DNA of 64,000 bases, from NCBI GenBank assembly GCA_017520935.1, contig JAFXEF010000045.1:44469-108468 (forward strand). Direction: 5' to 3'. The notes beneath the pieces were generated by a model. It made no database searches. It was not told the DNA's origin and saw only the letters and a program-made list of their open reading frames with translations. Both the position numbers and the translations under genes were made by a program. The stretch comes from Bacteroidaceae bacterium (GTDB lineage: Bacteria > Bacteroidota > Bacteroidia > Bacteroidales > Bacteroidaceae). Positions 2,619 to 11,425 of the stretch are shown here, one piece after another (the stretch's first letter is position 1; the number at the start of each line of letters is the position of its first letter).

Positions 2619-3179
2619 TTAATGTTGGCCAACCTGTAATCGCGCTCCCGCTGCCAGTACTGCATCTTCACGCTCTGGGTCACGTACCACCTCCAGGTCG
2701 CTTCTATCGGGATTATGTACCACCCTAAGTTCGGTTTTCTCTTTTCCCTCAGTTCCCATGTTAGAAGACAAATTCAGTTCTTCCAGTACAGGCCAAAGAC
2801 TCTCCTTCTTTCCACCCGATGAAATTACAAAGCTACACGATGCATTATTAATATCCCTATAGAACCGTACAAATCTCATAAAGTCCACACTGTAAATATC
2901 TACATCGCTGATATCAAAGCCTATTTTGATATTACGCATTTCATCCTCCCGATGAAACACAATGTCCGAGTACGAACCGAACTTCTTGAACCACCCATTC
3001 AGTACAATGGAGCGCGACTCAATCTGGTCCTGCAGGGTCTGAGTCACCAGCAGTATGCTCTGCAAGATGGTACTCTTGCCCGAACTGTTCGCCCCCGTAA
3101 AGATAGTCAGCGGCCGGAAGTTCAGCACCTTCTGCTGATTGATGGCCTTGAAATTATTCAGTATCCATTTGTTGATCAT
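2619..3179 (-). pseudogene. Truncated ABC/AAA_15-21-type ATPase (N-terminal fragment only)
   Basis: It has Walker A GANSSGKST and an N-terminus similar to the ATPase at 6100..7206, but no Walker B or H-loop follows. The last ~100 nt become GC-rich, and a different frame there carries an unrelated C-terminal fragment (WYIIPIEATWRWYVTQSVKMQYW...). Confidence 0.55.
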
Positions 3180-3223: not shown

Positions 3224-3384
3224 CTAACTCATTATCGCTTCCTTGATGCAATCCACGATGTACTTCACATCCTCATCCGTCACATACGGTCCCATAGAAC
3301 CACCCAGTTTGTATCGAATGCCTCCTTCACATATTTCTGTTCCGCACCCTCCTCTGACAGATGCGCCAGACAGAGATAAATCAT
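3224..3384 (-). pseudogene. DegT/DnrJ/EryC1-type aminotransferase remnant with large internal deletion
   Basis: The N-terminal piece MIYLCLAHLSEEGAEQKYVKEAFDTNWV is joined out of frame to the C-terminal tail GPYVTDEDVKYIVDCIKEAIMS. Roughly 300 internal codons are missing. Confidence 0.55.
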
Positions 3385-3541
3385 CTTTCTCTCTTCCATG
3401 ATAAATATTGCATAAAAAAAATGAATACGAAATTGCGTTCCATGCACGAGAGGCATGGAACATAAAAGATACAGGCACAAGCAACTTGCACCCATTTTTT
3501 AATTTGTCGAGTAAAACTATTGTACTATTGCCAAGCCTTAC

Positions 3542-4452: not shown

Positions 4453-5135
4453 TTAAATCATCTCCCCAGCATAGTGCATCTTCTTGCCCAGCACCGTGCA
4501 GAAAATCATCTGTATATCTTTGATGAAGCTATAATTGCGGTAGTAGTAGCAGTTGAGGCGCACCTTATCGGGGTATATCACATTATCGTTGTACCAACTG
4601 CCAATTCTTGATCGGGAAGTCCCTCGGGAATTTGGAATCCACTTATCACTTTTAACTTTTCACTCTTCACTTTATTGATGAAGTCCGCTATCATCTCGTC
4701 CTCCACGCGGTATTTCAGTGTGGCAGGTCCTGTGATGCCTGGGCGCAGCTTCAGCACATCGCGGTCGTCACCAGTGAGCTTGTCGGCATATCCGGGCACG
4801 TCGGGTCGTGGTCCGACGAACGACATCTTTCCTATCATCACATCCCACAGGCCAGGCAGTTCGTCTATCTTGTAGTGACGCAGCTTAGCGCCAAACGGTG
4901 TGATGCGCGAGTCGCCCGCCACTGACACCGTAGAGCCATTGTGCGCCACCGTCATGGAGCGGAACTTATGACATTTGAATAGCTTACCCCCCTTGCCCAC
5001 ACGCTTTTGCACGAAAAAGGCAGGTCCGCCCGGCATCTTCACCTTCACAAGTATGGCCGTCACCAGTATCACAGGCCACAAGAAACAGAGACCGAGGAAT
5101 GCAACCACTCGGTCGAAAATAAATTTTAAAAACAT
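4453..5135 (-). pseudogene. Bacterial sugar transferase (polyprenyl-phosphate glycosyl-1-phosphate transferase family), reading frame broken near the 3' end
   Basis: ORF 4578..5135 has an N-terminal TM helix plus KRVGKGGKLFKCHKFRSM and PGITGPATLKYR. The expected C-terminus YNDNVIYPDKVRLNCYYYRNYSFIKDIQMIFCTVLG is in another frame, ending at stop 4453-4455. The two frames overlap across a stutter tract at about 4636-4676. Confidence 0.6.
4999..5135. repeat. 137-bp direct repeat, copy A (5' end of the transferase gene)
   Basis: 131 of 137 nt are identical to 7786..7922, with no indels. Five of the six mismatches lie in the last 15 nt next to the ATG. Confidence 0.9.
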
Positions 5136-5213
5136 ATCAATTGAAAAAATGACTTTTTCTAAAGAAAGTCTTATTTTAACATATTAGGAAAACTCAGAAT
5201 TAAGTAAATCATC

Positions 5214-6089
5214 TTATCGCTTTAATTTGATGTCATGCCCACGCTTAAATCCTGTATTTACTTTTCCTAAAAAAGAGATTTCTCTTATATGTTTCCCACG
5301 ATGATCAAGTAACTCAAAAGCCTGCTTTTCAAAATCAATACTCAAAAAAGCTGCTTCACTATATCTGAATTTAACAGGTTTGAATATGCGACGAATTTTC
5401 TCTTTACCCGAATTGATTGAAGATAAACGTTCATCTTCAATCCAACCATTTAATCGCGCCACAAATGTTCCTTCTTGTTTCAATCTTACGATTCTTTCAC
5501 CTCTGGGCAATTTTGAAAAATCGGGTAGAGATTCACAATATCTCTTTGTTTTTTCAATATTCCAAATAGGATTAGAGATAGGATTTACACTACGTTCAGG
5601 CACTCCTGTCAAAAAATCATCCCTATATATCTCAACATTCCCGATATGCAAATTTTTGACAGAAACATCCTTTCCTTTATTCTTTTCACTATTATGCAAA
5701 TATGCGGCAAAAGAATCGCATATAAATGAGTTATCATACACGATACTAACTGCTGGCATATTTTTTGTATAAGCCAATGTTAATAACACAGCAATATCCT
5801 CTTTCGAATTTTCATCTCGGCAGATATATTCATTGCTTTTAGATGAATCTGCATGCTTTTTTACAAACTTATTATAAAAAATCTTTATTTTCAAACGTAA
5901 ATTCTCCGATTTCAGTTCATGTATTTCTTTATGAAGAATGGATGCCTCATTTTGAGGGAACAACACTTTCTGAACATCATACTCATCAGCCAATTTATTC
6001 ATCAATGCCATAAACTCATGCCATGACTTACACGACAGAAATGACCCTGATCTTAAAGCCACATCCCATTCATTCAAAGGAAGTTCCAT
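5214..6089 (-). CDS. Hypothetical protein, third gene of the DUF262/ATPase cassette
   Basis: A 291-aa ORF lying 10 nt downstream of the ATPase gene. It has a coiled-coil-like stretch HKEIHELKSENLRLKIKIF. No catalytic motif recognised. Confidence 0.6.
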   Translation of the reverse strand: MELPLNEWDVALRSGSFLSCKSWHEFMALMNKLADEYDVQKVLFPQNEASILHKEIHELKSENLRLKIKIFYNKFVKKHADSSKSNEYICRDENSKEDIAVLLTLAYTKNMPAVSIVYDNSFICDSFAAYLHNSEKNKGKDVSVKNLHIGNVEIYRDDFLTGVPERSVNPISNPIWNIEKTKRYCESLPDFSKLPRGERIVRLKQEGTFVARLNGWIEDERLSSINSGKEKIRRIFKPVKFRYSEAAFLSIDFEKQAFELLDHRGKHIREISFLGKVNTGFKRGHDIKLKR

Positions 6090-6099
6090 AGAGAAAGAG

Positions 6100-7206
6100 T
6101 TAACCTATTAACGTATCCAAAGCCTTTTCCCATTCATCAAAGAATCCCTTAGGCCATCTGTCCAAATCCCCATCTCCATTCAACACGATATGCTGTGCTT
6201 CGTGGAAGCCATTACGAACTGCAAAATATAAAATCGCAACATTTTCAGAAGAGATCATCTTCTCCTTTGCTGCCACTCGTACTCCATTCAAAAGATGGTC
6301 ACTATGTGTCTCTACAATCAACTGGATACCTTGTTCTGCAGCCATCGCGAGGAACACCCCCAATCTAAACTGTGCCGCCGGGTGCAAATGTGCTTCCGGA
6401 TTCTCCAGTAAAACACCTCCATTTTTCTTTGCTGTCAAAACTGCCGTCACAATAGGTAACAGATAAGAATATCCAAATGCCGAATTCAAAGGCGAAAAGA
6501 CATTCTCCTTGGCAATATCCCCCATGGTATATGTCAATCGTAAATCTTCACTGTTAACCTTTTCCACCTTCGCCGTGATTTTTGTCCCCATGATATAACT
6601 CATCCATGCCGACACATTATCACCTAGTCGAAGAGTAGAAACCGCTTCAGCTTTCAAGGCAGGAATAGCCAAATCCGCCACTTTATCAATAGCATCAAAC
6701 AATATCCCTACAGCTTTGTCACCATGCTTATTACCCATGCGACTATAGTTTTTCTCCGATGGATTCATCAACTTATAATCCATTTGTGGAGCCAATCGCT
6801 CAGCATTTAAATAGACAAAATCATCCTCGAACAAAAATAATCCACGCTTGGAATAATCATTTGGAGAAATCTCCACATGCTGCAAATGATTGGCACTATC
6901 TATTTGCGGAATCTTAAATTGGAAATCCTGTTCAGAATCTTCTATATGAATCTCAACAGACTCATTCACGGCCTGCTTGTATAATAAAGCCTCACCATTA
7001 ATCAGATTTGCCAACTCTCCATTTAGACAAAGATAATCGTCCTGAAAATAGCGTGACACAAAACTCTGCCGTATCAACAACAAAGATTGAATCAACGTAG
7101 ATTTTCCTACACCATTCATTCCTGTTACGAGGGTTAGAGGAGCCAACCGAACCTGCAACTCATCAAAACACTTGAAATTCCTCAGTATGATATATTCAAT
7201 CATCAC
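6100..7206 (-). CDS. ABC-type (AAA_15/21) ATPase with DUF3696-like C-terminus
   Basis: Motifs read: Walker A GMNGVGKST, ENPEAHLHPAAQ, H-loop ETHSDH, and a C-terminal WPKGFFDEW. Confidence 0.8.
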   Translation of the reverse strand: MMIEYIILRNFKCFDELQVRLAPLTLVTGMNGVGKSTLIQSLLLIRQSFVSRYFQDDYLCLNGELANLINGEALLYKQAVNESVEIHIEDSEQDFQFKIPQIDSANHLQHVEISPNDYSKRGLFLFEDDFVYLNAERLAPQMDYKLMNPSEKNYSRMGNKHGDKAVGILFDAIDKVADLAIPALKAEAVSTLRLGDNVSAWMSYIMGTKITAKVEKVNSEDLRLTYTMGDIAKENVFSPLNSAFGYSYLLPIVTAVLTAKKNGGVLLENPEAHLHPAAQFRLGVFLAMAAEQGIQLIVETHSDHLLNGVRVAAKEKMISSENVAILYFAVRNGFHEAQHIVLNGDGDLDRWPKGFFDEWEKALDTLIG

Positions 7207-7215
7207 GAAACTATT

Positions 7216-7665
7216 CTAATCATTTAATCTTTTAAAAATAGAATTCAAAACCTCTTTGGGTAGTTCTGTAGTCAACACATACCCCATCAATGATGTATTA
7301 ATGAATCTCCGTTTCACAGAAGGAAGTAAATCCGAGAAATATCCATTATACACCTTGGACAACAATTCCAAGTCATGTAATTGAAATTCATCATTTACAT
7401 ATCGACGTATAGCATGGATTCTCTCCACACCGTCCAACACAGTCCACTGTGGATAAGCACCATTAAAATAGAATGAAGCAATAGGAATACCCGATAATAC
7501 AGATTCGACAAAACGTATTTGCTTTTGTTCATTCCACCTCTTCCTTTGCACTCTTTTACCAATCAATTGCCCATCATCCATTCTCTGCATCAACTCACGG
7601 ATGGTAAAATGCTGCATTCTGAAATCAGTACTTCCAATTATATCATTCATTATGTGAGTATTCAT
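7216..7665 (-). CDS. DUF262 / ParB-like N-terminal domain protein (149 aa)
   Basis: VQRKRWNEQKQIRFVESVLSGIPIASFYF and VLDGVERIHAIRRY fit the QR..W ... DG.QR pattern of DUF262. Confidence 0.7.
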   Translation of the reverse strand: MNTHIMNDIIGSTDFRMQHFTIRELMQRMDDGQLIGKRVQRKRWNEQKQIRFVESVLSGIPIASFYFNGAYPQWTVLDGVERIHAIRRYVNDEFQLHDLELLSKVYNGYFSDLLPSVKRRFINTSLMGYVLTTELPKEVLNSIFKRLND

Positions 7666-7690
7666 TACAAGTAATATTAAAACTCATCCA

Positions 7691-7724
7691 CAAAAATAGA
7701 TATTTTTGTTTGAACTATCGCAAA
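7691..7724 (-). promoter_or_regulatory. Candidate Bacteroides-type promoter of the cassette (-33 TTTG, -7 TAttTTTG)
   Basis: On the minus strand TTTG is at 7724-7721 and TATTTTTG at 7698-7691, 22 nt apart. The box lies about 26 nt upstream of ATG 7665 and is part of the palindrome CAAAAATAGATATTTTTG. Confidence 0.4.
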
Positions 7725-7763
7725 ATATTACAGAAATAACAACAATAATCGTTTCAGACGGAG

Positions 7764-7922
7764 TTATGACAAATAGACAGTTCCTACACGCTTTTGCACG
7801 AAAGAGGCAGGTCCGCCCGGCATCTTCACCTTCACAAGTATGGCCGTCACCAGTATCACAGGCCACAAGAAACAGAGACCGAGGAATGCAACCACTCGGT
7901 CGAAAATGAATTTCAGTATCAT
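7764..7922 (-). pseudogene. 52-codon remnant duplicating the N-terminus of the sugar transferase
   Basis: It translates MILKFIFDRVVAFLGLCFLWPVILVTAILVKVKMPGGPASFVQKRV, then diverges and stops at 7764. It is near-identical to the first 46 aa of the gene starting at 5135. Confidence 0.75.
7786..7922. repeat. 137-bp direct repeat, copy B
   Basis: Pairs with 4999..5135 (131/137 identical). Confidence 0.9.
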
Positions 7923-7930
7923 AATGTATG

Positions 7931-8039: not shown

Positions 8040-8243
8040 TTACGAATGTTGCAGTTCCATTACTATTTCCTCTGCCACGTATGCATCGCTCAACAGTTGA
8101 AGTCCACTTTTCGGATTGTGTATTAGCGTACACACGCGAGAGCTATAGAAGATGTTCAAAGCCTGCTTAGCATCAACGCCTAACCGTTGTGAGAGCAGTG
8201 TTACGATTCGAGCTATTTTTCGCCACAGAAGTATTTCATTCAT
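8040..8243 (-). CDS. DUF3791-like small protein
   Basis: A 67-aa ORF starting at MNEILLW, with an ATGA overlap on the upstream gene's stop. The family call is from memory of the DUF3791/DUF3990 gene pairs common in gut anaerobes. Confidence 0.5.
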   Translation of the reverse strand: MNEILLWRKIARIVTLLSQRLGVDAKQALNIFYSSRVCTLIHNPKSGLQLLSDAYVAEEIVMELQHS

Positions 8244-8755
8244 ACGCCTACCTCCTCTTCGTTCACGAGACAACTATCCACATATACCAAACAGGAGTCT
8301 ATCAACTGTTGATTCAACAGACACAGTTGGTTATTTGGTTGTGCGTAAGCCAACTTTGCTAACGTATGCTCCACATCAGCCAATCCTGCAAGATATGCTT
8401 CCACTGCATCCACCACCTTGTCATTGGCTACCCCACCTATTATCAAGTCATATCCTTCCCACGGGGTTTCCCCATGCCTACTCGCAGCGATGAACTCCAG
8501 CCATTCTTGGTTATACCCATCAAGATGCCGTTGTTTATACCCACCAGCATTCACCTTATCCATATCGAGGTGATATTCATTTAGCCATGCCACATCGGAA
8601 CGTCTGAGGATTTGCTGTCGCAAAGCCCACTGCACGGCCTGTTCACGGTACGTAGTCAAATAAAAACCTTGGCCGAAATCGAGGTTCTTGCGGCCTAAAC
8701 TCACCAAAGGATGCTCCACCCTGTGCGTAGAGCCATGAAATAGTGTCAATATCAT
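8240..8755 (-). CDS. DUF3990-like protein
   Basis: MILTLFHGSTHRVEHPLVSLGRKNLDFGQGFYLT is an N-terminus typical of DUF3990. The protein is 171 aa and is flanked on both sides by overlapping small ORFs. Confidence 0.55.
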   Translation of the reverse strand: MILTLFHGSTHRVEHPLVSLGRKNLDFGQGFYLTTYREQAVQWALRQQILRRSDVAWLNEYHLDMDKVNAGGYKQRHLDGYNQEWLEFIAASRHGETPWEGYDLIIGGVANDKVVDAVEAYLAGLADVEHTLAKLAYAQPNNQLCLLNQQLIDSCLVYVDSCLVNEEEVGV

Positions 8756-9024
8756 AGCTCGTTCCCTTTTCCTTTAGATGTGCTTTCCCACTTAAGCAAG
8801 GCTTCTATGGTATCTTCTGCCACATGCTCGAGGCTCATAGTGTGAAACACGTCATAATATTTAACAATATAAGACTCTATAAGGTTTTGGGCACTGAGGC
8901 GCTGCTGCATCTCGCCAGGACTGACATTCATCTTCTTTGCCGCTGCCTCTATTGCCAAAATGGCAAAATGCAGTTGTTCTTCAGTCCACTGCCCTGCAGC
9001 CACATTTCCTGATACATCTTTCAT
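8752..9024 (-). CDS. DUF3791-like small protein
   Basis: A 90-aa ORF with a 4-nt overlap on the DUF3990-like gene. Confidence 0.5.
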   Translation of the reverse strand: MKDVSGNVAAGQWTEEQLHFAILAIEAAAKKMNVSPGEMQQRLSAQNLIESYIVKYYDVFHTMSLEHVAEDTIEALLKWESTSKGKGNEL

Positions 9025-9177: not shown

Positions 9178-10260
9178 TCACTCCAGCTTCACCTTACGCT
9201 TCAAATATGAGCTAAAAGAGAAAGTATTCCATACCATCAGCCAATAACTCTCACTTGCGAGACTACGGTATCGCCACATACGACCAAACCGTCGGAGAAT
9301 GCGGAAACACTTCTGCAGAAAACTCTCTTTGCTAATATCTGGATGACCATCCATAATATCCTGCATCACTTGATGCACCAAGGCGCATCCGGTTCCATCT
9401 TCTGATGGTATTCTTAGCGACTTCACACTAATATCCATCCCCAAAAACTCCACACACATTTCAGTCATCACTTGTGCAAAACGAATGATTCTGCACTTCT
9501 CCATCTCAGGCACCAGATTCTCCCAATCCACACTTTCCTGCTCTTTCTGTAGAAAAAAGGCCCAGTCCAGAAGATGGCGAAGATTGATTCCCTCACTAAT
9601 AAAATGCATCAATGCGTGTTTAATTAAGAAGAAAGCATTAAAATCAGCACTGGGGCTAAGCAAATGAGTATTTGCCAACTGACGATGCCCCCCATCTATT
9701 AGTTGTTGCAGATAGCGTTCTGTATATACACCTCTCCTTGTGTTGTTAAAATTTGTGAGATAGTAATGATTCTCTATCGTCAGTCCTTTATAGTGTAAAT
9801 GAGCATGTTTGTATCCTCCATCTTCGACCTTTCCGCCTATCACTGCAGTGATACAATCTCCCTCTTTGCCTTTACCCATCATATAGCAATCCAAGTCGCC
9901 ACATTCACGTGTCATTGGATTTGGGTAATATACACCAAAGGCAAGTCCCTTCAACACGACTACAGGGATGCCGTTCTCATACATTTTATCTGCATACTCA
10001 GCAGACAATGAAAACATCTTCTTCAATTGCTGCTCTACGTATAACGCCTGCGAATACCATCCTAACAGGACATTCCTAGGGGGTGCTACTTCCTTGGGAA
10101 GCGACTGTATTTTATCAAACACGACGGCAGATACTCCCTGTTTTTTTGACAGTTCAAATAGGGTCTGCCAATCACCGGGAGTAAGTCCTCCCATAAAAGA
10201 AGGACTAAGAGGTTCCGCGCTTACAACACATTTCAGTAGATAGAAAAGAGTTTCATCCAT
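9178..10260 (-). CDS. Uncharacterised nucleotidyltransferase family protein (NTP_transf_5-like)
   Basis: VVLKGLAFGVYYPNPMTRECGDLDCYM fits the G..(x)n..DLD motif of this family, which is frequent in Bacteroidales CPS loci. Confidence 0.6.
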   Translation of the reverse strand: MDETLFYLLKCVVSAEPLSPSFMGGLTPGDWQTLFELSKKQGVSAVVFDKIQSLPKEVAPPRNVLLGWYSQALYVEQQLKKMFSLSAEYADKMYENGIPVVVLKGLAFGVYYPNPMTRECGDLDCYMMGKGKEGDCITAVIGGKVEDGGYKHAHLHYKGLTIENHYYLTNFNNTRRGVYTERYLQQLIDGGHRQLANTHLLSPSADFNAFFLIKHALMHFISEGINLRHLLDWAFFLQKEQESVDWENLVPEMEKCRIIRFAQVMTEMCVEFLGMDISVKSLRIPSEDGTGCALVHQVMQDIMDGHPDISKESFLQKCFRILRRFGRMWRYRSLASESYWLMVWNTFSFSSYLKRKVKLE

Positions 10261-10302
10261 TATTCATCCAAGCTACTCACTATAATAATTTTAAGAATGT
10301 CC

Positions 10303-10737
10303 CTATCCATTATACGCCCCATCCTTCGCTTCAAAGATGGCGCTTGGTTCCAGCACCTCAACCGTATGCCATACCCCTTGGGGAATTTGTACGCCATACT
10401 TACCTTCACGTGGACAGAGCTCCACACGCTTCACTTCACGGAACGAGCACTTCCTTACCACCTCTTCGGTACGGGAAGTCGTTTCGCGAATATACTCCAC
10501 CACTTCCTCGTAGAAGATCTCCACGAGTCGGCCTTCTATGCAAATGACCGTCTCCGTAGTGTCCTCATGCCGATGTATAGGCACCTGAGTACCTACCTCC
10601 AGCACATTGAGCATACGTTGCGAGGTATCAGCAGCAGAAGTACGGAGATCATAGTTCTGGCGCAAGCGAGGAGAAGCCTTAGCCTGTTCCGTCAAGCCAG
10701 TCAACAATGTCCTTTTAATCTCCAATATTTCTATCAT
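10303..10737 (-). CDS. wbuC: WbuC-family cupin fold protein
   Basis: SPRLRQNYDLRTSAADTSQRMLNVLEVGTQVPIHRHEDTTETVICIEGRL matches the WbuC cupin signature. Confidence 0.65.
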   Translation of the reverse strand: MIEILEIKRTLLTGLTEQAKASPRLRQNYDLRTSAADTSQRMLNVLEVGTQVPIHRHEDTTETVICIEGRLVEIFYEEVVEYIRETTSRTEEVVRKCSFREVKRVELCPREGKYGVQIPQGVWHTVEVLEPSAIFEAKDGAYNG

Positions 10738-10825: not shown

Positions 10826-11425
10826 TCAGAATCCAGTTTTACCTATATTCTCATTGTTAGCATTAGTCACGACCTTAAAAATTGTCATGAAGAAAATCTT
10901 CAGGTCAAGTTTCAGACTCATATGTTGGGCATACCATACATTTAGTTCTATACGCTCTGGCCAAGGTACCTCTTTACGACCATTTACCTGAGCCCATCCG
11001 GTCACGCCTGGGAGCACATCAAACATCTGTTTTTGATGCTCAGTATACTGTTCATAAGGCCAAGGGTGATATGTCAAAGCAGGACGAGGGCCAATTAGCG
11101 CCATGTCACCCTTTAGGATATTGACAAGTTGTGGAAGTTCATCAATAGAGGTAGCACGAATTATTCTACCCACACGAGTTATACGACTATCCCCTTTATA
11201 GGAATACACGCCAGTACCCTGTCTTTCTGCACCAACACACATGGAACGAAATTTCCAGATCTTAAATGGAACACCATCTTTACCCAAACGTTCTTGCTTA
11301 AAGAGCACAGGTCCTTTAGAATCCACTTTAATAAGAATTGCGACAATTACTAAAGGCACAAATAAGATGAGCAATGCTACTAAAGCAACAATGAAATCAA
11401 AGAATCTTTTAAAATACTTATACAT
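10826..11425 (-). CDS. Bacterial sugar transferase (initiating glycosyl-1-phosphate transferase), intact
   Basis: It has an N-terminal TM helix, KQERLGKDGVPFKIWKFRSM, DELPQLVNILKGDMALIGPRP and PGVTGWAQVNGR. Confidence 0.85.
   Translation of the reverse strand: MYKYFKRFFDFIVALVALLILFVPLVIVAILIKVDSKGPVLFKQERLGKDGVPFKIWKFRSMCVGAERQGTGVYSYKGDSRITRVGRIIRATSIDELPQLVNILKGDMALIGPRPALTYHPWPYEQYTEHQKQMFDVLPGVTGWAQVNGRKEVPWPERIELNVWYAQHMSLKLDLKIFFMTIFKVVTNANNENIGKTGF

Follow-up and report, generated by a model that had tools for sequence, protein, structure and literature searches.

We analysed a 64,000-nucleotide (nt) stretch of DNA from a Bacteroidaceae bacterium (GenBank assembly GCA_017520935.1, contig JAFXEF010000045.1, positions 44,469 to 108,468 of the forward strand), which we refer to as the window. 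On the evidence of their sequences, the three genes at 5214-7665 are a compact NsnA-NsnB-NsnC system of the Menshen (NsnABC) type, predicted to act against phage and belonging to a Bacteroidales lineage in which NsnA is reduced to its ParB/DUF262 nucleoside triphosphatase (NTPase) domain. Menshen was reportedly first reported by Millman et al. in 2022. The cassette lies within the 5' end of T, our name for the small phosphoglycosyl (initiating) transferase gene of a capsule locus (positions in T, i.e. T nt, are counted from its ATG; L-numbers denote comparison loci or contigs and P-numbers comparison proteins). Judged from related loci, the insertion is one instance of a recurrent hot-spot process rather than a one-off event, and we think it probable that the Menshen-type cassette was moved into the T hot spot by host homologous recombination, without an integrase. 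The features of the insertion site are as follows.

4453-5135, minus strand: T, the small phosphoglycosyl (initiating) transferase gene, frameshifted (Pfam Bac_transf, PF02397, 5.8e-45)
4996-5135, minus strand: downstream repeat copy, the live 5' end of T (from comparison with L070)
5136-5213, minus strand: spacer between nsnC and the ATG of T
5214-6089, minus strand: nsnC, presumed effector, 291 amino acids (hidden Markov model of its family against canonical NsnC; PADLOC, 1.5e-6)
6100-7206, minus strand: nsnB, ABC-type ATPase with a DUF3696 tail (PADLOC NsnB, 5.4e-96)
7216-7665, minus strand: nsnA, short form, ParB/DUF262 only, 149 amino acids (PADLOC NsnA, 8.9e-35)
7666-7782, minus strand: leader of the cassette with Bacteroidetes-type promoter-like boxes (read from the sequence)
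7783-7922, minus strand: stub, the displaced first 140 nt of T, MILKF allele (repeat; Pfam Bac_transf, 3.2e-8)

The insertion is bracketed by a direct repeat. A repeat search of the window aligned 4996-5136 with 7783-7923 over 141 nt (95% identity, gap-free, spacing 2787), and the 22-nt core of the repeat has 0.00 chance occurrences expected in the window; used as a metagenome query, this core returned only two loci, one of them L058. The first-pass annotation of the window had reported a 137-bp direct repeat without indels (131/137 identical), an upstream copy that keeps an ATG (7922) and stops after 52 codons (7764), and three packed minus-strand genes of 149, 368 and 291 amino acids between the copies. 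All of this was recovered: six differences were counted within the 137 nt, the stub reads as an ATG-started open reading frame (ORF) of 52 codons at 7764-7922, and the three genes lie where they had been placed. Five of the six differences fall within the first 15 nt, which read ATGTTTTTAAAATTT in the live T and ATGATACTGAAATTC in the upstream copy, and the sixth is at nt 119; the full 141-nt alignment adds a further mismatch at nt 138. The insert had also been described as more AT-rich than the repeats. Its GC fraction is indeed 0.32-0.43, against 0.54 for T, but the remaining capsule locus is equally AT-rich (0.35-0.45) and it is therefore T, and not the insert, that is the compositional outlier. 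An assembly artefact is excluded, since no fewer than 23 contigs, drawn from independent assemblies in ENA, Logan and NCBI, have the stub/cassette/T structure.

An unoccupied counterpart of this site, L070, was found by looking up the identical DUF3990 protein. Its gene order is DUF6016, NTP_transf_5, DUF3791, DUF3990, a 67-amino-acid gene, a single T of 227 amino acids and the 76-amino-acid/PIN pair that the window also has, with no cassette. L070 aligns to window positions 10689-7783 and 5126-3287 in two alignments that share 131 nt in L070, and on either side of the insertion point (~1.75 kb upstream, 0.8 kb downstream) it is 99-100% identical to the window. Over its first 60 nt, its T matches the stub in the window at 100% identity, and the stub is therefore the recipient allele. 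Compared with the window-type live T, the L070 T has 5 differences in nt 1-20, followed by none in 120 nt, none in 160 nt and one in 150 nt. On this comparison, only ~16 nt of the live T (5120-5135, the MFLKF start) are demonstrably foreign and linked to the cassette, and the remaining ~124 nt are of recipient type in both repeat copies. The start MFLKF or MFFKF accompanies the cassette in the window, L012 and L019. An A at nt 138 is common to the window stub and the L012 alleles and is absent from L070 and the live T of the window, a pattern that fits a donor-derived stub end. The first-pass annotation had envisaged a cassette that entered a capsule operon together with a replacement 5' end for its target gene; the entry is borne out by L070, with its single intact T, but the replacement shrinks to the ~16 nt. 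Further upstream, in and beyond NTP_transf_5 (window 9700-10689, L070 5115-6100), the identity between the two falls from 99-100% to only 74-93%; the capsule locus is a recombination mosaic.

The three genes of the cassette lie in the order nsnA-nsnB-nsnC on one strand with ~10-nt gaps, which is the order in the canonical loci L021 and L024. A divergent Menshen member had been suspected in the first-pass annotation, which proposed profile searches, and when PADLOC was run all three proteins matched Menshen models with the E-values listed above. The third protein, in which no recognisable motif had been seen, is in fact homologous to NsnC: the hidden Markov model of its family matches canonical Bacteroidota NsnC (6e-34 for L021 and 4.8e-34 for L022, positions 70-286), and the 291-residue "orphan" is therefore NsnC. 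In BLASTP it is 30% identical to canonical NsnC over residues 97-278, with the first ~96 amino acids unmatched, and the PADLOC match covers only the C-terminal part. Given the PADLOC matches and the NsnC homology, the cassette is a variant of a known system and not a new one.

NsnB is full length, the PADLOC match extending over positions 1-343 of 345. Pfam assigns AAA_15 (3.7e-23), DUF3696 (1.5e-12) and also AAA_21, and the translation contains a Walker A motif (GMNGVGKST), a Walker B motif with EN for DE (VLLEN) and an H motif (ETHSDH); an EN Walker B and a DUF3696 tail have been described for Menshen NsnB (PMC12065111). The gene encodes 368 amino acids from a GTG and 367 from the ATG at 7203 that is used by gene callers. 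An exact look-up matched the ATG-start form, the GTG-start form matched nothing, and the ATG at 7203 is the likely start.

NsnA is where the cassette departs from the published description. In a survey of 1997 Menshen loci, NsnA universally comprised ParB-DUF262 and ParBDB, and this pair was used to define the system (Li et al., NAR 2025, PMC12065111). The PADLOC match of the 149-residue protein spans only profile positions 44-184 of 385, Pfam GmrSD_N (DUF262) gives 32.8 bits, just below the cut-off of 33.2, and the protein aligns with residues 14-156 of the 342-residue NsnA of L021 at 32% identity; it is the ParB/DUF262 domain alone, compared with 342-389 amino acids for NsnA in canonical loci. 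The ParBDB DNA-binding domain is absent from the cassette NsnA, which stops at residue 149 (residue 156 of the 342-residue NsnA), and because nsnB begins 10 nt past the nsnA stop there is no space for an additional ORF. Of the published NsnA motifs QRxxxW, DGxQR and FxxxN, the counterparts present are QRKRW, in which W alone is invariant across the family, DGVER, an invariant sequence with E for Q in motif II, and FKRLN. The idea that ParBDB had moved into NsnC was rejected, as the first 96 amino acids of NsnC are too short and have few, low-confidence helices in an AlphaFold2 (AF2) model.

The short NsnA family forms 29 clusters at 90% identity, all of 144-154 amino acids and extending down to 57% identity, and the ORF lengths of the cassette genes are kept down to 45-57% identity. 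The ratios of nonsynonymous to synonymous substitution rates (dN/dS) relative to L019 are 0.14 for nsnA, 0.07 for nsnB and 0.26 for nsnC. By these measures the short form of NsnA is conserved and under purifying selection. Nor is it unique, a view we dropped since a representative library at 50% identity holds many other DUF262-only relatives of 142-162 amino acids, and it may recur as an architecture that went unnoticed in the published survey. Among the many unrelated NsnA-like proteins of this length, P0165, P0179, P0183, P0189, P0203, P0211 and P0216 appear to be complete, as they start with M and end a few residues past motif III.

The cassette thus resembles Menshen in its co-oriented A-B-C genes, its ParB/DUF262 NsnA, its AAA_15-type NsnB with EN and DUF3696, and its homologous NsnC, and differs in an NsnA of 149 amino acids that lacks ParBDB, has DGVER for DGxQR and a degenerate motif I. 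A second difference concerns NsnC, for which the described pattern is an N-terminal inactive-PIN-like domain followed by a C-terminal effector (nuclease) domain: in the cassette ~96 N-terminal amino acids are unmatched and the effector domain fits none of the named families tested. The AF2 model of NsnC (12-sequence alignment) has a predicted local distance difference test score (pLDDT) of 60.5, with the N-terminal half below 50, and a Foldseek comparison with PDB structures yielded nothing below E 0.5; neither PDB sequences searched with a profile nor the two halves scanned separately with Pfam (E up to 10) produced a match. If the published model is taken as a guide, NsnA would sense phage nucleic acid, the ABC ATPase NsnB would pass the signal on and NsnC would be a nuclease-type effector.

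Comparison between loci indicates that the cassette moves independently of the loci that carry it. L012/L013 belong to another capsule locus, where NTP_transf_5 is found upstream and AAA_14 together with DegT downstream, and the homology between the window and L012 ends exactly at the stub ATG and the T stop. Within it the cassette has 17 differences in 2647 positions (99.4% identity) and the T body 26 in 543 (95.2% identity; Fisher p 1.4e-10), while the capsule loci are otherwise unrelated. L019, a metagenome-assembled genome of Mediterranea massiliensis (family Bacteroidaceae), carries a cassette with 82% nucleotide identity; synonymous divergence (dS) is 0.4-0.7 for the cassette and saturated for T. 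The L019 stub consists of ~36 nt of another T allele (MFLKWIFDRLV...) at L019:7417, and the leader is joined elsewhere. With its different stub and leader junction, L019 records a separate entry of this cassette family into T. BLAST and a repeat search had suggested that the L019 cassette had no duplication, which was wrong, the 36-nt stub being divergent. Flanking repeats were also considered for the cassette in L020, which has no adjacent transferase, and were rejected, since the short repeats do not align. The loci seen place the short-NsnA cassette in seven different settings, of which six are polysaccharide loci, with the cassette inside them on the operon strand, and one is a defence island beside DegT and UDP-glucose dehydrogenase genes. 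The setting in L050, with its methylase, HD-CE and ORC/CDC6-like genes, is a defence island of the classic kind.

The same position in T also receives other cargo, and does so serially. In L056 (2925-8684) a stub of nt 1-50 is followed by a SocA_Panacea pair, a second stub (nt ~17-46), the Lamassu genes LmuA/LmuC/LmuB, an intact T and a PIN pair; the T protein is 97% identical to the window-type T and the PIN pair is the same as that of the window. L058 (1-2654) has a stub of nt 1-50, PDC-M29 A/B and T. The first stub of L056 and the stubs of L057 and L058 have a 150-nt leader in common, with different cargo behind it. L068/L069 contain PDC-M29, a stub, a DUF3791/DUF3990 module of PDC-M13 type (L068 6515-7716) and an internally deleted T. 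Since a T stub and a truncated T bracket the module in L068/L069, it behaves as a further cargo unit of the array, and its equivalent in the window is:

8040-9024, minus strand: DUF3791, DUF3990 and 67-amino-acid genes, a candidate defence or toxin module (PADLOC PDC-M13B, 2.3e-43, and PDC-M13A, 4.2e-13; Pfam)

The T slot holds varied defence and toxin cargo, each preceded by a T stub, and T is therefore the anchor of a stub-delimited array. In the literature searched we found no description of a T-stub-delimited defence slot in capsule loci, which does not prove that none exists. The downstream side of T is also a cargo zone, up to DegT or the locus end (L059 9041-13924; L077 7782-12412), with RADAR-like RdrA/RdrB, an AAA-ATPase_like/PDDEXK_9 gene, PIN pairs and AAA_15 pairs.

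In the window, a segment of 2787 bp is set within the first 140 nt of T; the recipient 5' end stayed as a 140-nt stub, and T was re-formed behind the cassette from a cassette-borne start region of ~16 nt followed by recipient-type sequence. These arrangements can be accommodated by host homologous recombination. It would move a unit consisting of the stub end, the cassette and the T start between T-bearing loci, the conserved T 5' end serving as a homology arm that travels with the cassette, either by (i) a double crossover within T, the donor being occupied beforehand, or (ii) Campbell-type integration of a circle that had been excised by way of the two repeats. The T family itself is a very large and strongly conserved one of the Bacteroidales, with more than 8000 matches better than 1e-60, and among the 120 matches listed identity is 84-97%. 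The junctions at T nt 36, 46, 50 and 140 are unrelated, which fits a founding event by homology-facilitated illegitimate recombination in each lineage. No recombinase lies within ~8-10 kb of any of the T-linked cassette loci checked and there are no mobility genes inside the cassettes, in keeping with the first-pass annotation, which had seen no integrase or transposase.

Several points weigh against this account. The recombination mechanism is read back from its end products only, namely sites with and without the cassette, mosaics of alleles and junctions of independent origin. It is equally conceivable that L070 lost a cassette when the repeats recombined and is a revertant, not the ancestral empty site. 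The T loci L059 and L077 have no upstream cargo or stub, and the sample comprised only ~10 distinct T contexts. As regards function, the NsnC effector fold matched no known fold in structure, profile or Pfam searches, and an NsnA without its reportedly universal domain and with altered motifs I and II could belong to a module that has degenerated or taken on another use; the ParBDB-less variant has no known phage-defence phenotype. Lastly, three of the four independent stub ends are at T nt 36-50, beside a stable hairpin, and plain homologous recombination predicts no such clustering. The hairpin is formed by T nt 22-46 (window 5090-5114 and 7877-7901), a perfect 7-bp inverted repeat (GACCGAG-N11-CTCGGTC) with a folding energy of -12.8 kcal/mol and a z-score of -3.2.

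A more far-reaching reading is that, among Bacteroidales of gut and rumen, the 5' end of T offers a site of attachment that requires no integrase: defence and toxin cassettes with a short copy of this end would leave as circles and be re-inserted by host recombination into any T-bearing capsule locus, such that capsule type and intracellular immunity switch together. We regard this as possible but doubtful; if true, stub-delimited arrays would put the mini-Menshen system and other cargo under phase-variable capsule-operon transcription. An integron-like capture, in which a remote recombinase would use the hairpin core at T nt 22-46, insert circular cassettes and leave attL-like stubs, seems to us improbable. 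It would account for cargo units arranged in arrays and separated by copies of the T 5' end, for stub ends at ~nt 36, 46 and 50 beside the hairpin, and for cassettes without mobility genes. However, the junctions differ (T nt 36, 46, 50 and 140), the sequences on the cassette side of the junctions are unrelated, the hairpin is not kept in the L019 or L059 T alleles, and the sole integrase seen, in L068/L069, is several kb off in a different context, whereas homologous recombination would be expected to give the identical 124-nt duplication found in the window.

It is very unlikely that the trio of DUF262, ATPase and third gene is not a defence system and serves the capsule locus instead, in regulation, DNA maintenance or addiction. 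The location of six of the seven contexts in polysaccharide loci on the same strand, the altered motifs and missing DNA-binding ParBDB domain of NsnA, and the want of a known phenotype would agree with such a role, but the homology of NsnB and NsnC to canonical Menshen proteins, found in many phyla and in non-capsule contexts, is clear, the L050 context is a classic defence island, and Lamassu, PDC-M29 and toxin-antitoxin pairs occupy the same slot. Simple decay, in which two tandem T genes flanked the cargo and a deletion removed the upstream copy except for the repeat, draws on the frequency of deletions here (DegT is internally deleted and T frameshifted, and the L068 T has an internal deletion) and on the fact that a deletion beginning inside the upstream gene always leaves a 5' stub, yet it has very little chance of being correct given that L070 has a single T at the exact stub position with a 100% identical upstream flank, that none of the contigs among the ~10 contexts has two full T copies around cargo, and that the cassette is far more alike between loci than the T body is.

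Movement of cassettes by host homologous recombination, our preferred reading, has partial parallels in known systems. For the effector-immunity arrays of the Vibrio cholerae type VI secretion system (T6SS), homology-facilitated illegitimate recombination was proposed, as it was for Rhs displacement (PMC5361080). These T6SS arrays, and the orphan toxin tips of Rhs/CDI (contact-dependent inhibition) loci cited in the same paper, likewise combine a conserved gene anchor, partial displacement of the resident gene by arriving modules, orphaned fragments in series and no integrase (PMC5361080). They differ from the present case in that it is the 3' end that is displaced there, whereas here the 5' end of the anchor is displaced and stubs accumulate upstream, and in that here the cargo is unrelated to the function of the anchor and the anchor gene is restored intact. 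As in defence islands, one slot receives varied systems (Menshen-type, Lamassu, PDC-M29, PDC-M13 and toxin-antitoxin pairs of SocA and of PIN type, with RADAR-like genes downstream); unlike them, the slot is inside a capsule locus on the operon strand, and what separates its units are incomplete copies of the flanking gene itself. Islands that target tRNA and tmRNA genes are also alike in that the target is rebuilt with incoming sequence and a partial duplicate of it brackets the insert, but here there is no integrase, the duplicates are of 27-140 nt, the 5' end of a protein gene takes the place of the 3' end of an RNA gene, and only ~16 nt are demonstrably borne by the element.

A conserved lineage without ParBDB would show that this domain is dispensable for the operation of NsnA-NsnB-NsnC, or is replaced, and the cassette would offer a minimal system for work on the Menshen mechanism. 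The pair of occupied and empty sites, together with the serial stubs, would make it possible to read off how a defence island can be assembled without mobile-element genes, with a conserved housekeeping-type gene as the homology anchor for its build-up. Capsules themselves are major determinants of phage resistance, and the presence of defence systems on the capsule-operon strand makes co-regulation of surface and intracellular immunity a testable idea.

As regards expression, the TTTG and TAttTTTG boxes that had been noticed ahead of the genes were located in the leader at 7721-7724 and 7691-7698 respectively, 22 nt apart, and constitute a putative promoter. The leader is conserved with L019 from ~7748 downwards. 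A terminator candidate between nsnC and T (hairpin and T-run, 5140-5175) was rejected, with a z-score of +0.57 against shuffled sequences and failure in a terminator scan, and with it the idea that T is transcriptionally insulated from the cassette was dropped. Because the leader boxes are conserved and the spacer hairpin is unconvincing as a terminator, transcription from the cassette's own promoter and read-through from the operon are both plausible.

The insertion into a capsule initiating-transferase gene, as first proposed, stands with the qualification that T is the distal one of two such genes and is frameshifted here. The T ORF of the window ends at 4578 (185 amino acids, covering Pfam positions 1-145 of 179) as the result of a 1-nt deletion near 4597, which is accompanied by three single-nucleotide differences within 15 nt (compared with L003, L012 and L019); intact T in L003, L012, L070 and L019 has 227 amino acids and ends at the equivalent of 4453. 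The full-length Bac_transf domain is therefore not present in the window copy of T and is present in the copies of its relatives. The frameshift may reflect either genuine pseudogenisation by mutation or an error of the assembly at this point. Upstream in the locus there is a second, complete Bac_transf gene at 10826-11425 (199 amino acids, 40% identical to the interrupted T), and the locus is therefore not dependent on T.

T is at the distal end of the capsule locus, with glycosyltransferases and the second Bac_transf gene upstream, and is followed by a PIN toxin-antitoxin pair, an AAA_15 fragment and then primase/DUF3987 genes. The DegT aminotransferase that is the usual partner of T is internally deleted, with only its first ~120 nt and last ~60 nt left at 3234-3405; the ends of this remnant match L012 11960-12086 and 13181-13239. 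An ORF of 186 amino acids at 2619-3179, on the edge of the locus, matches only the N-terminal part of AAA_15/AAA_21 ATPases and probably encodes a defence ATPase in truncated form.

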